64,000 nt of DNA. Source: an uncultured bacterium. GTDB taxonomy: Bacteria > Cyanobacteriota > Vampirovibrionia > Gastranaerophilales > Gastranaerophilaceae. Shown in pieces: positions 59,934 through 62,910 of the stretch (position 1 is its first letter; each line of letters begins with the position of its first letter). The notes below the pieces were generated by a model. That model was not told the DNA's origin and ran no database searches. It saw nothing but the letters and a program-made list of their open reading frames with translations. The stretch covers positions 12,216 to 76,215 of the forward strand of contig CATLLN010000006.1 in assembly GCA_950022695.1 (NCBI GenBank), given 5' to 3'. A program made the position numbers and the translations under genes.

Positions 59934-60007
59934 AATTGAATTATATAATTTAAAGGCTCAAAGTCAAACATATTGACAAAAAGAAAAAAATAATAAATAA
60001 TATAATT

Positions 60008-60116
60008 GTAGGGCGAAGCTCCTAAGAACTAAGCTAACCTTAGAAGCTCCTCAACACCCTATAAAACTAGAAGTAAAATTTGTAAAATCGCTATCATTGC
60101 CGTGATGGCGATTTTT
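60008..60116 (+). ncRNA. candidate antisense (antitoxin-like) sRNA, cassette 1
   Basis: TTGACA (59973-59978)-N17-AATAAT (59996-60001). Intrinsic terminator 60084-60115 (13-bp stem with one U.G that would be A.C on the other strand) plus T-run. Fully antisense to the 3' part of ORF 60059-60136. Confidence 0.35.
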
Positions 60117-60136
60117 ACAATTAATCTAAGTTTCAT
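60059..60136 (-). CDS. 25-aa hydrophobic peptide, type I toxin-like
   Basis: Own translation: MKLRLIVKIAITAMIAILQILLLVL*. SD AAGGAGG 7 nt upstream; TAGACA-N17-TAATAT (with TG) promoter-like pair at 60214-60242. Confidence 0.45.
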   Translation of the reverse strand: MKLRLIVKIAITAMIAILQILLLVL

Positions 60137-60298
60137 AGATTCACCTCCTTTCTGACCAATTTCCTCAAAAAATTGTGTGTGTCAGTGGAAGCATGTATTC
60201 GCCCTATAGATAAATATTATCATGATTCGGTATTCTTGTCTATAAACTTAATAATATGTCAGATATTGATATCTTGACAAAACTAATGAAATAATAAA

Positions 60299-60428
60299 TA
60301 ATATAATTGTAGGGCGAGAGCCTTTAAGTTTTAGTCGGATTAAAGACTCTACTACGCACCCTACGGTTTAAATAATTTTAATGCTACTAAGAGTAAGTCG
60401 AATGCTATTAGTAGCATTATTATTTTAT
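60299..60428 (+). ncRNA. candidate antisense (antitoxin-like) sRNA, cassette 2
   Basis: TTGACA (60264-60269)-N17-AATAAT (60287-60292). Hairpin AATGCTACTA/TAGTAGCATT (60380-60418) followed by a T-rich tract. Antisense to ORF 60361-60435. Confidence 0.35.
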
Positions 60429-60435
60429 CAACCAT
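60361..60435 (-). CDS. 24-aa hydrophobic peptide, type I toxin-like
   Basis: Own translation: MVDKIIMLLIAFDLLLVALKLFKP*. SD AAGGAGG 9 nt upstream; TAGACA-N17-TAAAAT at 60513-60541. Confidence 0.45.
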   Translation of the reverse strand: MVDKIIMLLIAFDLLLVALKLFKP

Positions 60436-60611
60436 AGTTTAAGCCCTCCTTTCGTCCAATTTCTACGTAAATTGTGTGTGACGAAATGGCAGTGTGCCAA
60501 CCCTACGAACCAATTTTACAATAATATGTTATATTTGTCTATAAACTTAATAATAAGTCTGTATTTTTGCATTTTATTTCGTGATATAATCACTCAGAAA
60601 GGAGAGAATTT

Positions 60612-60995
60612 ATGAAATTATTACATACAATGATAAGGGTCAAAAATGCTGATGAGAGTGTAAAATTTTACACTGAACTTTTGAATATGAAACTTGATAA
60701 AAAGAAAAGATTAGATGATTGCTGGTTATATTTTTTGACAGATGAAGACGGTACAACACAGCTTGAACTTACAGCAAATGATGAAACACCTGAGAATGGT
60801 TATAATTTGGGTTCAGGATTCGGACATTTGGCATTTTCTGTGGAATCTTTGGATGAATTTACTGAAAAACTACACTCGCTTGGATATGAGTATCTTTATG
60901 AACCTTTTGATTTAAACGGAAAAGGTACAAAGATTGCTTTTGTTACAGATCCTGACGGTTATGAAATAGAGCTTATAGAAAAAGTTGTTTGGTAG
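60612..60995 (+). CDS. gloA: lactoylglutathione lyase (glyoxalase I, VOC family)
   Basis: LLHTMIRVKN...FY, ELT.N, GFGHLAF, DPDGYEIELIE motifs; SD AAAGGAGAG. Confidence 0.85.
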   Translation: MKLLHTMIRVKNADESVKFYTELLNMKLDKKKRLDDCWLYFLTDEDGTTQLELTANDETPENGYNLGSGFGHLAFSVESLDEFTEKLHSLGYEYLYEPFDLNGKGTKIAFVTDPDGYEIELIEKVVW

Positions 60996-61051
60996 TGCTT
61001 TGTAAGGGGTCAACTCTTGACAAAAGATGTAAAATCGTAAATAATAAAATA

Positions 61052-61132
61052 ACAGGGTGGTACCTTGAGAAAGTGCCGGAAACCTTGAGAAGACTATACG
61101 GTTCTTATCTGTTTAGATGAGAGCCGTTTTTT
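61052..61132 (+). ncRNA. candidate antisense (antitoxin-like) sRNA, cassette 3
   Basis: TTGACA (61017-61022)-N17-AATAAT (61040-61045), same layout as cassettes 1 and 2. Terminator 61098-61127 (13-bp stem with two U.G pairs that exist only on the plus strand) plus TTTTT. Confidence 0.35.
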
Positions 61133-61185
61133 AATATGTACAAAATCAAAAAGATTAAAAATAAAGTCAGATTGAAATTATCCAT
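61105..61185 (-). CDS. 26-aa hydrophobic peptide, type I toxin-like
   Basis: Own translation: MDNFNLTLFLIFLILYILKNGSHLNR*. SD AAGGGGG 5 nt upstream; TATAAT at 61283-61288 (minus). Confidence 0.4.
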   Translation of the reverse strand: MDNFNLTLFLIFLILYILKNGSHLNR

Positions 61186-61290
61186 ATCAGCCCCCTTTCT
61201 AGCCGGGAACCAACCCGAAGACTATACAATAATTGTCGGCTGGTTTCTTTAAGAAAAGGTCTCTTTTACCCTGTTAAATATTATTATAAT

Positions 61291-61566
61291 TTATTCATCA
61301 ATTAATGTAAAATTTTTACCGAGTTTATTTTCTAATTCTTTCATAAATTCTGAGGGTGTAATATCAAGAGCTTGTAATATTTTTAATAATGTAACAAATT
61401 TTATTTCTCCCAATCCTCGTTCAATTCTGCTTAAATTACTGTCATTTAAATCATATTCATCTGCGAATTTTTTACGGGAAATATATCCTTTTTTAATTCT
61501 AAGTTCTTTAATGTAAGAACCTAAAACAACCGCTAAATGTAAAGTTTTTTCAGAAATCTCTTGCAT
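61291..61566 (-). CDS. XRE-family HTH transcriptional regulator
   Basis: SRKKFADEYDLNDSNLSRIERG HTH core. Confidence 0.75.
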   Translation of the reverse strand: MQEISEKTLHLAVVLGSYIKELRIKKGYISRKKFADEYDLNDSNLSRIERGLGEIKFVTLLKILQALDITPSEFMKELENKLGKNFTLIDE

Positions 61567-61575
61567 TATCTTTTA

Positions 61576-61908
61576 TTATTTATTTAGTACAAAATCCGCA
61601 AATAATTTGAGAATATTTAAAATTAATTTTAAATATTTGCTTTCAAATTTATTTAACTCTTTTTCTATTGATTTAATTAATTGTTCATCAGTTTTGTTTT
61701 GTTCAAAATCAAATAATTCATAATAACTAACATCAAGTTTTGACGCAATCCGTTCTAATGTTTTAAAAGAGATTGTTCGTTTACCTGTTTCAATCAATCC
61801 AATAGTGGTTGGTTCAAGCCCAACAACCTCAGCAAACTGCTGTTGAGTCTGTTTTCTGCTTTCTCTTATTTCTTTTAATTTTTTTCCAAACAAAGTACTT
61901 AATGACAT
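61576..61908 (-). CDS. XRE-family HTH transcriptional regulator
   Basis: TQQQFAEVVGLEPTTIGLIETGKR HTH core with helical C-terminal extension. Confidence 0.75.
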   Translation of the reverse strand: MSLSTLFGKKLKEIRESRKQTQQQFAEVVGLEPTTIGLIETGKRTISFKTLERIASKLDVSYYELFDFEQNKTDEQLIKSIEKELNKFESKYLKLILNILKLFADFVLNK

Positions 61909-61999
61909 ATATTCATACTAATCGGTTATAAGTTTAGTTACTACTACCAATTAAGATATAAAATTTAACTAATTTTGTTAAGTTTTATGAATTAAATTA

Positions 62000-62209
62000 T
62001 TACGATTCTTCATTTACTTCGATTAAAATATCATTTATTTTACAATTAAAGAATTTTGCTATAGTTTCTAATGTCTTTAATTCATAATTATAGTATTTTC
62101 CGCTAAATAATTGACTTACAGTATTTTTACTTAAGCCAGTTTTATCAGCAATTTCTTCTTGTGTATATTTCTTTTTCCAACGAATATTATACAAATTAAC
62201 AATATACAT
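62000..62209 (-). CDS. XRE-family HTH transcriptional regulator (short, YozG-like)
   Basis: YTQEEIADKTGLSKNTVSQLFSGK; same architecture as 6140-6343. Confidence 0.7.
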   Translation of the reverse strand: MYIVNLYNIRWKKKYTQEEIADKTGLSKNTVSQLFSGKYYNYELKTLETIAKFFNCKINDILIEVNEES

Positions 62210-62320
62210 ATATTTAAATATATAATTTGATTGTGTTTATTGAACAATATCCAAATATAAAGTATAATTAATCCTATATAGTAGGAAATTTGAAATATTT
62301 TTTAATATTATTGAGGAATA

Positions 62321-62785
62321 ATGAAACTAGTCACACTGAATAAAGACCAGATAGATAAATTACTTGAATACAAACGATTGAATATCGATTATAAAAAATC
62401 AATATCGCTCGATATATACGATAATCAACTTACACTAAATAACAATGGGATTATCTTTACACTACAAAGTGCCAATTTTGAATTTGAAAACTATGAAAAA
62501 ATACATTATTGGGTTGCAGATGAACTTAAAAATATGGTTTGCGAATATTTTAATTTAAATTCCAATGAAGTAATTCTTCGCTCTTTTTCTCCGGAAGAAA
62601 CTATTTTTGGTGTTCGACTGGTTCCGCAAAAAGAGTTACTTTTGCTAGTTTGCACGAGAAAAATAGCAATGACAAATACTTCTGAATTGTTTGAAATAAA
62701 TGATCCTGAAAGACATGAACAAATTGGACTTTATAGACAGCTTGGTAATTCTTATTATTACTTCAAGTGGATTGATGAAGAATAA
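62321..62785 (+). CDS. hypothetical protein
   Basis: 154-aa ORF divergent from the XRE trio; no family recognised. Confidence 0.45.
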   Translation: MKLVTLNKDQIDKLLEYKRLNIDYKKSISLDIYDNQLTLNNNGIIFTLQSANFEFENYEKIHYWVADELKNMVCEYFNLNSNEVILRSFSPEETIFGVRLVPQKELLLLVCTRKIAMTNTSELFEINDPERHEQIGLYRQLGNSYYYFKWIDEE

Positions 62786-62910
62786 TTATATTTAATAATC
62801 AGCATGCCAGTATATACAATCTTTACATATTTTAATTTATTTACAACAAAATTTCCTCATTGTATTATGATATAAGTAAGTTATGATAAAGATTTCTTTC
62901 GGAGGCTAAA

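Follow-up and report, generated by a model that had tools for sequence, protein, structure and literature searches.

A candidate type I toxin-antitoxin-like module with covarying RNA contacts downstream of gloA in a gut Gastranaerophilales genome

In the genome of an uncultured gut bacterium, a unit of roughly 290 bp follows immediately downstream of gloA and carries a tiny hydrophobic open reading frame (ORF) and a putative small RNA on opposite strands. Is this unit, here called cassette 3, a type I toxin-antitoxin (TA) locus and, if so, does it belong to a known family? The stretch of DNA analysed, hereafter the window, comprises 64,000 nucleotides of contig CATLLN010000006.1 and comes from a metagenome-assembled genome (MAG) with a G+C content of 32%, which GloA relatives place in the gut Gastranaerophilales (Melainabacteria/Vampirovibrionia). 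We conclude that cassette 3 is probably a chromosomal type I TA-like module of a previously undescribed family, present in gut Gastranaerophilales and their phages, because its relatives keep both of its RNA pairings through compensating mutations. The anatomy of the unit, the conservation of its ORF, two sets of covarying helices and the specificity of cognate pairs support this reading in silico. The system is not categorically new: within a known kind of system, it makes up a new family and subtype.

An earlier note on this DNA had described cassette 3 as a plus-strand promoter pair followed by a strong terminator, which overlaps the last codons of a minus-strand ORF of 26 codons with a Shine-Dalgarno (SD) sequence. 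It had added complementary boxes at the two ends of the toxin mRNA and an exact 11-nt direct repeat. All of these elements are present (Table 1). Since its two G.U pairs become A.C on the other strand, the terminator is specific for the plus strand, and on the minus strand no T-run follows the stem. The predicted antitoxin RNA is fully complementary to the end of the toxin ORF and to the 3' untranslated region (UTR) of the toxin mRNA. A promoter for the toxin gene, absent from the earlier note, sets the predicted mRNA start at about 61276, right at the 5' box. The 26-residue hydrophobic peptide, presumed to be a membrane toxin, contains no proline.

The first leads to relatives were homologues of the adjacent XRE gene; a scan with the promoter motif, patterns specific for cassette 3 and a covariance model of the antitoxin came next. 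The resulting set holds eight distinct full-length cassettes of the cassette-3 type and one partial cassette, on gut metagenome and phage contigs. Copies on phages and a variant of the promoter came from the specific patterns and the covariance model; the -35 or spacer sequences of L219 and L182 deviate from the motif. The covariance model (R1, five sequences) finds four members that it had not seen (L219, L220, L221 and L182), no antitoxin of the cassette-1 or cassette-2 type, and nothing in gloA loci. A viral match of an ORF-based pattern, L218, was rejected as a chance match. Other searches were negative: phage and plasmid collections had no blastn match to the cassette, tblastn searches for the peptides of 24-26 aa returned low-complexity noise only, and Rfam, including 13 type I antitoxin families, gave no match at gathering level, only a chance-level pan motif (E = 0.1) and microRNA models. 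Loci from MAGs of the same species were 99.7-100% identical and offered no variation to use.

The five antitoxins folded have a common structure: a 5' hairpin, a single-stranded linker of 8-10 nt and a terminator containing G.U pairs, which return in the stems of the homologues. In this fold, 10 of the 25 pairs carry compensatory changes, and the core of the direct repeat lies inside the linker in every antitoxin folded. On the toxin strand, all eight distinct full-length cassettes have a hydrophobic ORF of exactly 26 codons with a strong SD, which puts the peptide below the 60-aa bound of a generic type I toxin. Loss of the ORF from related genomes had been named beforehand as an outcome that would count against the unit; the 26 codons are kept in the eight cassettes, and the peptide substitutions are conservative. 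Synonymous changes are also present. Conservation within the cassette peaks in codons 1-19, with 81-91% identity against 67-82% in the UTRs. The cassette ORFs are not listed by any gene caller.

Could the real coding frame lie on the other strand? A lysine-rich ORF of 38 aa runs antisense to the toxin gene on the plus strand (61136-61252) and is open in all members. Frame analysis indicated that wobble positions coincide in the two frames, so that synonymous-site and codon statistics cannot tell them apart. The length of this ORF, however, varies from 38 aa in the window to 45 in L182, 50 in L091, 31 in L101, 21 in L198 and 29 in L219, and its C-terminal parts are unrelated between members. 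It lacks an SD, and its ATG stands directly behind the U-run of the terminator, whereas the minus-strand ORF keeps one length throughout and is preceded by a strong SD. On its variable length and missing SD, we rejected the plus-strand ORF as the true gene and give it next to no chance.

The second contact proposed between the two RNAs involves the direct repeat. The earlier note had placed a second target for the antisense RNA at the repeat copy in the toxin leader, and comparison among members supports this. The sequence of the repeat varies by member, yet both copies change together (Table 1). When the antitoxin linker was aligned with the leader target in eight sequences, 89.8% of cells were paired and 9 of 11 pairs had compensatory changes; none of 500 shuffles equalled this, and controls in which the strands were slid reached 20-46%. 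Even L219 and L220, near-identical phage copies, differ in concert at both repeat copies. The concerted change of linker and leader target amounts to a natural experiment on dual-site recognition and closure of the mRNA. In the window, the repeat extends imperfectly to about 25 nt (61077-61099 and 61203-61227). Across members, a hairpin in the leader carries this copy within or beside its apical loop, at a distance of 16-20 nt from the SD farther downstream; for the 11-nt target of the window, the distance is about 18 nt.

Duplex energies were consistent with a cognate contact. In the window, the duplex between antitoxin and leader was computed at -47.6 kcal/mol, compared with -34.0 +/- 4.6 kcal/mol for shuffled sequences. 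Among 1000 shuffles 6-8 reached the computed energy, as did a single one of the 609 native segments of the window. In an all-against-all comparison of 45 non-redundant cassettes, the cognate antitoxin-leader duplexes of the cassette-3 type ranked 1, 1, 2 and 1, with energies of -23 to -36 kcal/mol against about -15 +/- 3 kcal/mol for non-cognate pairs. The cognate pairs of cassettes 1 and 2 ranked 26 and 27; this test of 45 cassettes found no cognate-specific second antitoxin site in either. The second site is therefore a feature of the cassette-3 type.

A direct repeat next to regulator genes might instead be a pair of DNA operators for the adjacent XRE-family regulators. XRE genes lie within 600 nt of four of the five cassette-3-type cassettes whose context was examined, and the repeat changes between loci, as operator specificities could. 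However, L101 and L198 share the repeat GAGGTCTA and have different XRE neighbours, while the phage copies L219 and L220 show the covariation with no adjacent XRE gene at all. The copies, moreover, always fall in the only single-stranded segment of the antitoxin and in the loop of the leader hairpin, which fits RNA pairing and not operators. We regard the operator explanation as very unlikely.

A closure of the toxin mRNA by pairing of its 5' end with its 3' UTR had been proposed in the earlier note from the end boxes. Two helices make up this closure, and the antitoxin 5' hairpin is antisense to the same stretch as their 3'-UTR partners. In the minimum free energy (MFE) structure of every member folded, the 3' UTR is the partner of the extreme 5' end, with sequences that differ by member (Table 1). 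Cognate and non-cognate closure energies across the whole family averaged -18.0 and -16.5 kcal/mol, but the 5' and 3' boxes are common to many cassettes and the compared sequences took in AT-rich promoter DNA; closure was therefore judged by column-wise covariation within the cassette-3 type. Because a MAFFT alignment of six toxin mRNAs puts helix 2 out of register, anchored mini-alignments were made; L091 was too divergent for a reliable full-length alignment. In the anchored alignment of six sequences, 87.7% of cells were paired and 10 of 19 pairs had double changes, a result equalled by none of 500 shuffles, while slid controls gave 40-55%. An independent MAFFT/RNAalifold analysis of four sequences gave 93.9% pairing and double changes in 8 of 17 pairs, equalled by 1 of 500 shuffles.

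The SD is paired in both of two alternative folds. In full-length MFE structures, of homologues as well as of the window, it pairs with the pyrimidine stretch CUUCU/CCUCU of the 3'-UTR repeat copy (61088-61093), and in folds of the leader by itself it pairs with an upstream UCUUUUC. Modelled in this way, helix 2 and the anti-SD helix look like alternatives, and the two SD-sequestering partners suggest a conformational switch.

Might all of this be no more than a gloA terminator? On this explanation, the plus-strand hairpin would terminate gloA, and the promoter-like sites and the minus-strand ORF would have arisen by chance in AT-rich intergenic DNA. No other gloA terminator precedes 61098, and promoter-like hexamers are common here at a lax threshold (18 found, 11 expected). 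Stricter features are rare. Sigma-70-like sites with at least 11 of 12 matches and a 17-nt spacer occur nine times on both strands of the window, and four of the nine are cassette promoters; ATG ORFs of 15-50 aa that have an SD and are at least 50% hydrophobic number four, three of them cassette toxins. The 22-base promoter motif is found in the three cassettes only, with none expected even when one mismatch is allowed. The antitoxin RNA folds at -29.5 kcal/mol (z = -4.8), and the toxin mRNA folds with a z-score of -3.2 and its ends paired. The whole unit recurs without gloA, beside unrelated genes and in phage contigs, with ORF and helices conserved. Conversely, among 80 gloA loci of other species (about 70 related species), none has a homologue of cassette 1, 2 or 3; in these species a terminator of its own comes after gloA, and often also murA. 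The comparative data contradict the gloA-terminator explanation, which we consider practically negligible.

From the sequence and its predicted folds we infer the transcripts and their ends, the toxicity of the peptide, translational repression and the route of decay, and the proposed process runs as follows. Two helices between the 5' end of the toxin mRNA and its 3' UTR would close the molecule and leave it translationally inert. The SD would be paired with alternative pyrimidine tracts, and the leader hairpin would display the 11-nt target. Contact between linker and loop would then nucleate or clamp the complex and keep the ribosome-binding region closed. Antitoxin and mRNA would join in a long duplex, about 80 bp, that takes in the end of the ORF and the 3' UTR. 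Since the 5' part of the antitoxin has the same sequence as the 5' end of the mRNA, binding at the 3' UTR would have to displace the mRNA's own 5' end. The duplex at the 3' end would mark the mRNA for decay by a double-strand-specific ribonuclease (RNase), presumably as in TxpA/RatA (PMC12390103). By way of the leader site, a 3'-trimmed mRNA that lacks the overlap would also come under the control of the antitoxin.

Several points weigh against our reading. The hydrophobic core of the peptide is short, about 13-15 residues. The toxin peptides match no family in Pfam, NCBIfam, PHROGs or PADLOC, in the first two not even at E <= 10. Both RNAs, their promoters and the transcript ends are predicted, and the 3' end of the toxin mRNA lacks a canonical terminator. 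The mini-alignments behind the strongest counts (A8 and A10) were anchored manually in view of the pairing; eight sequences are available in all, three of which come from one metagenome, and this relatedness inflates the shuffle statistics. Helix 1 of L101 is weak (4 bp), and RNAalifold with six sequences favours the alternative helix, between the upstream UCUUUUC and the SD, over helix 2. Finally, the leader target occupies positions -42 to -18 counted from the AUG; in the window, 5 nt separate it from the SD, and neither SD nor AUG is covered. Because the target stops short of both, direct occlusion of the SD is not evident.

Some of these points fit a different explanation, in which the ORF is a small membrane-protein gene under the control of a cis-antisense RNA. 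No TA pair would exist; the protein would have a physiological or phage role, for instance as a holin-like accessory or a modulator of the membrane, and would only be tuned by the antisense RNA. The short core, the toxicity that is only predicted and the lack of a match to a known toxin family agree with this, as do the copies that lie beside phage lysis-like genes. By contrast, the overall design matches type I TA loci with a 3' overlap: the hydrophobic ORF is tiny, the antisense promoter strong and constitutive-looking, and the SD sequestered; copies occur in tandem, several unrelated hydrophobic peptides stand between the same promoters, and the locations are islets and phages. All of these traits are typical of type I TA systems (PMC8594479, PMC2887945). 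We therefore think a membrane-protein gene unlikely, though it is the strongest competitor to a TA module.

A broader reading extends the TA module and is held only tentatively; on balance we doubt it. It takes the cassettes as a modular superfamily of Melainabacteria and their phages, in which unrelated cores would be swapped between two conserved convergent promoters. In the cassette-3 type, the 5' part of the antitoxin would mimic the 5' end of the mRNA, strand exchange would open the closed mRNA, and the linker would clamp the leader loop, so that full-length and 3'-processed mRNA would both stay silent. If this is true, the strand-exchange layout is undescribed for any type I system, and the family is the first with RNA-level support in non-photosynthetic Cyanobacteria.

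Table 1. Features of cassette 3, its relatives and its surroundings (window coordinates unless a locus is named; minus-strand features may be given from high to low)
Feature	Sequence or length	Position	Strand	Remark
Antitoxin promoter	TTGACA-17-AATAAT	61017-61045 (-35 61017-61022, -10 61040-61045)	+	11/12 matches
Family motif	TTGACAAAA-N6-AAAT-N2-TAAATAATA	61017..61046	+	encloses antitoxin promoter
Predicted antitoxin RNA	~81 nt	61052..61133	+	5' hairpin, linker, terminator, U6
Antitoxin 5' hairpin		61053-61087	+	
Antitoxin linker	GAAGACUAUAC	61088-61097	+	only single-stranded stretch
Antitoxin terminator stem-loop	13 bp	61098-61127	+	followed by U6, 61128-61133
Toxin promoter	TTTACA-17-TATAAT	61311..61283	-	overlaps last codons and stop of XRE-family gene 61291-61566
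Predicted full-length toxin mRNA	about 235-240 nt	61036..61276	-	inferred
End box, mRNA 5' end	AACAGGGU	61268-61275		
End box, mRNA 3' end	ACCCUGUU	61051-61058		
Helix 1, 5' strand / 3'-UTR partner	UAACAGGGU / ACCCUGUUA	61268-61276 / 61050-61058	-	strands within 61256..61276, partners within 61050..61086
Helix 2, 5' strand / 3'-UTR partner	GAGACCUU / AAGGUUUC	61256-61263 / 61079-61086	-	
Leader hairpin stem	AACCAGCC / GGUUGGUU	61208..61245	-	presents repeat copy b
Repeat copy a	GAAGACTATAC, 11 nt	61089-61099	+	linker core; on other strand, toxin 3' UTR
Repeat copy b	GAAGACTATAC	61217-61227	-	toxin leader; second antitoxin target
Second antitoxin target in leader		61203..61227	-	imperfect part 61203-61216
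SD	AAAGGGGG	61191..61198	-	5 nt before ATG
Toxin ORF	MDNFNLTLFLIFLILYILKNGSHLNR, 26 aa + stop	61185..61105	-	
Other seven cassette-3-type peptides, 26 residues	MDNFNLALFLIFLILYILKNGSHQIR, MDNFNLSLLLIFLILYILKNGSCSKE, MDKFNISLLLIFLILYILKNGSYLNR, MDKFNISLLLIFMILFVLKNGSYLNR, MENINLTLILVLLILFILKNGSYRIR, MENINLSLMILFLIIFILKSDIQHKI, MENINLTLIMIFLILYIMKNGASHKR			
Helix 1, L198	AUGCAGAGU / ACUCUGCAU			
Helix 2, L198	GAAAACUCU / AGAGUUUUC			
Helix 2, L101	GAUACUCUUU / AAAGAGUAUC			
Helix 2, L219	GAUGCUCUU / AAGGGCAUC			
Helix 2, L221	GUACCUU / AAGGUAC			
Helix 1, L091	AGGGGC / GCCCCU			
Repeat, L101, L198, L220	GAGGTCTA(A)			both copies
Repeat, L219	GAGACTTA			both copies
Repeat, L221	GAGGTCA			both copies
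Repeat, L091	TATGGCTAAAG			both copies
Repeat, L182	AAGTCGGAAT / AAATCGGAAT			copy a / copy b
Full-length cassette-3-type members				window, L101 (=L107), L198, L219, L220 (=L222, L223), L221, L091 (=L092, L093), L182
Partial cassette-3-type member				L168
Phage-like contigs with cassette-3-type cassettes		L219 2924-3262		L219, L220, L221, L222, L223; IMG/VR 3300045988
Cassettes 1 and 2, toxins	MKLRLIVKIAITAMIAILQILLLVL, MVDKIIMLLIAFDLLLVALKLFKP	59970-60560		same promoter-defined superfamily
XRE-family helix-turn-helix (HTH) genes		61291-61566, 61576-61908, 62000-62209		islet
ORF154	154 aa	62321-62785		islet
Cassettes near XRE genes		window 61283-61311; L101 3050-3344; L198 401-653; L089 2501-2830		also L100, L102, L108
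Loci with further toxin classes				L122, L133, L149, L172, L196, L200, L204; L110, L128; L164, L177

Does the module belong to a known family? The earlier note had likened the repeat to DRa and DRb of the enterococcal par locus. In par of pAD1, promoters converge, direct repeats create a second complementary region, the SD and 5' end are sequestered, and divergence of the repeats gives specificity (PMC7472228). Judged by analogy, the logic of cassette 3 is closest to this locus: its promoters converge, a repeat transcribed in opposite directions yields a second complementarity in the toxin 5' region besides the 3' contact, intramolecular structures would sequester the SD and the extreme 5' end, and the repeats are poorly conserved between homologues, giving specificity. 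The resemblance thus holds for the logic and does not extend to membership, because cassette 3 has no bidirectional terminator, its repeat lies next to the SD and not over the initiation region, and it has neither the Fst motif nor a Pfam match. Instead of a shared bidirectional terminator it has a strand-specific antitoxin terminator, and the toxin mRNA would read through the whole antitoxin gene. It has one repeat and not two, located upstream of the SD, whereas the par repeats lie over start codon and SD. Its 5' end pairs with the 3' UTR and not, as in par, with a nearby upstream helix. The motif missing from the peptide is PXXXG, and the host belongs to a different phylum.

In Staphylococcus aureus, the antisense RNA SprA1AS covers the SD and the start codon of its toxin mRNA. 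The second site of cassette 3, by comparison, stops short of the SD, the overlap includes the end of the ORF, and no sequence relationship exists. The likeness lies in the layout: SprA1AS is a 3'-side antisense RNA that overlaps the toxin mRNA and interacts functionally outside the overlap (PMC8594479), and the cassette-3 antitoxin is likewise located on the 3' side, overlapping, with a second site outside the overlap. In TxpA/RatA, BsrG/SR4 and YonT/SR6 of Bacillus prophages, toxin mRNA and antitoxin overlap at the 3' end of the former, and the outcome is RNase III-type decay and/or a structural change that buries the SD (PMC12390103, PMC8594479). Cassette 3 resembles these systems in its 3' overlap, which includes the end of the ORF, in its prophage or islet location and in the outcome to be expected. 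Whereas those act by 3' overlap alone, it adds the covarying leader site and the 5'-3' closure, and its peptides are unrelated and shorter.

The AapA1 mRNA is closed and inert at full length through long-range pairing of its 5' and 3' ends. For hok, a similar long-range pairing that produces a closed, inert mRNA, with 3' processing as the trigger of refolding, is credited to Franch et al. 1997 (as cited in PMC8594479). The predicted closure of the cassette-3 toxin mRNA is of this sort. In hok/Sok and AapA1/IsoA1, however, the antitoxin binds the 5' region only and the 3' element is no antisense target, while in cassette 3 the antitoxin is encoded at the 3' end, and its fully complementary site doubles as the 3' partner of the closure. 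Since both use this same 3' site, closure and antitoxin binding there would be mutually exclusive. Cassette 3 also lacks a leader ORF, and its peptide is neither Hok nor AapA.

A further comparison is with MsoT1/MsoA1 of Microcystis aeruginosa, a candidate type I TA system reported in 2025 as the first outside Proteobacteria, Firmicutes and Tenericutes (PMC12390103). Both belong to the phylum Cyanobacteria sensu lato; MsoT1/MsoA1 comes from another class, the photosynthetic cyanobacteria, and cassette 3 is defined by comparative RNA evidence and not by a toxicity assay. The two were compared by description. A search of full-text literature found nothing that joins type I toxin-antitoxin with Melainabacteria, and an either-term search had no article on Gastranaerophilales among the matches listed. 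On these searches, the lineage is new for type I systems, and the covariation backs both dual-site recognition and closure of the mRNA.

The earlier note had further assigned cassette 3 to the same family as cassettes 1 and 2, with promoters aligned position for position. A 22-base promoter motif is indeed common to all three, although the promoter of cassette 2 starts at 60274 and not at 60264. The kinship holds for the motif, the geometry, the co-occurrence in tandem and the interchangeable position. The superfamily is defined here by the motif together with a toxin stop codon 95-110 nt downstream on the opposite strand, and cassette 3 conforms with a stop at +98. L091 carries cassette-1-type and cassette-3-type units in tandem, and L089 has a cassette-2-type unit right after an XRE gene, where the window has cassette 3. 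The kinship fails in the cores: nhmmer found no similarity of cassette 3 to the core of cassette 1 or 2, and the peptides are unrelated. Cassette 3 is for that reason a distinct subtype within a modular, promoter-defined superfamily.

The promoter motif was also scanned in larger collections. In IMG/VR it gave four matches, all of them real cassettes, and in metagenome contigs at least 119, mostly from human gut and other gut sources. About 57 of the latter have a convergent hydrophobic ORF with an SD and a stop 80-115 nt after the -35 element, and these cassettes fall into at least six peptide classes. Contigs of gut metagenomes and the IMG/VR phage contigs L095-L098 contain dozens of relatives of the cassette-1 and cassette-2 types. 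A promoter motif of 22 bases that can be searched for, together with covariation, defines a family that belongs to an uncultured gut lineage and its phages. About half of the 119 metagenome matches (L099-L217) have no toxin ORF by a simple filter, and some are not from gut; these may represent additional kinds of cassette, copies that have degenerated, or matches by chance.

Behind the same antitoxin promoter we observed a 32-aa toxin class (MELYFVLFLEFLIRKYKDKAPILELLELILKM-like) with a conserved, charged, proline-containing middle, and two more classes of 24-25 aa. The antitoxin promoter is conserved beyond its hexamers, with AAAT-N2-TA before the -10 and AAA after the -35 element, in cassettes with unrelated cores. 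On the toxin strand, the motif (61017-61046) reads as a U-rich tract after helix 1. The conservation may reflect a dual role as promoter and 3'-end signal of the toxin mRNA, or a regulator site. Most toxin promoters also have T(A/C)GACAAA in common.

Cassette 3 lies at the edge of an islet of about 1.8 kb between gloA and murA (~61000-62805), which also holds three XRE-family HTH genes and ORF154, an ORF without a family match in Pfam, NCBIfam, PHROGs or PADLOC. These genes are assigned to an islet because the cassettes are missing from the gloA loci of relatives and the murA upstream region picks up again at position 62808; relative to L011, L017 and L019 (gloA / murA upstream region), the islet appears as an insertion. 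In phage copy L219, the cassette has lysis-like genes on one side, for a peptidase and small membrane proteins, and tail-fibre-like genes on the other, which is a moron-like position. As small unannotated genes, the cassette ORFs may stabilise islets or prophages or affect the interplay of phage and host in a member of the human gut microbiota.

Of the 45 non-redundant cassettes, 9 have an XRE-type HTH gene no more than 500 nt away, about ten times the background (8 per 544 kb). For three cassette-3-type cassettes the distance is at most 45 nt, in either orientation; phage copy L219 has none, and for the XRE91 gene nothing was found in viral contigs. A regulatory or mobility link between XRE genes and cassettes is possible.

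The gloA gene of the window has no terminator of its own. Since the first one downstream is that of the antitoxin, the 3' UTR of a gloA read-through mRNA (60995-61133) would hold the complete antitoxin sequence, and such an mRNA could act as antitoxin or be regulated like it.

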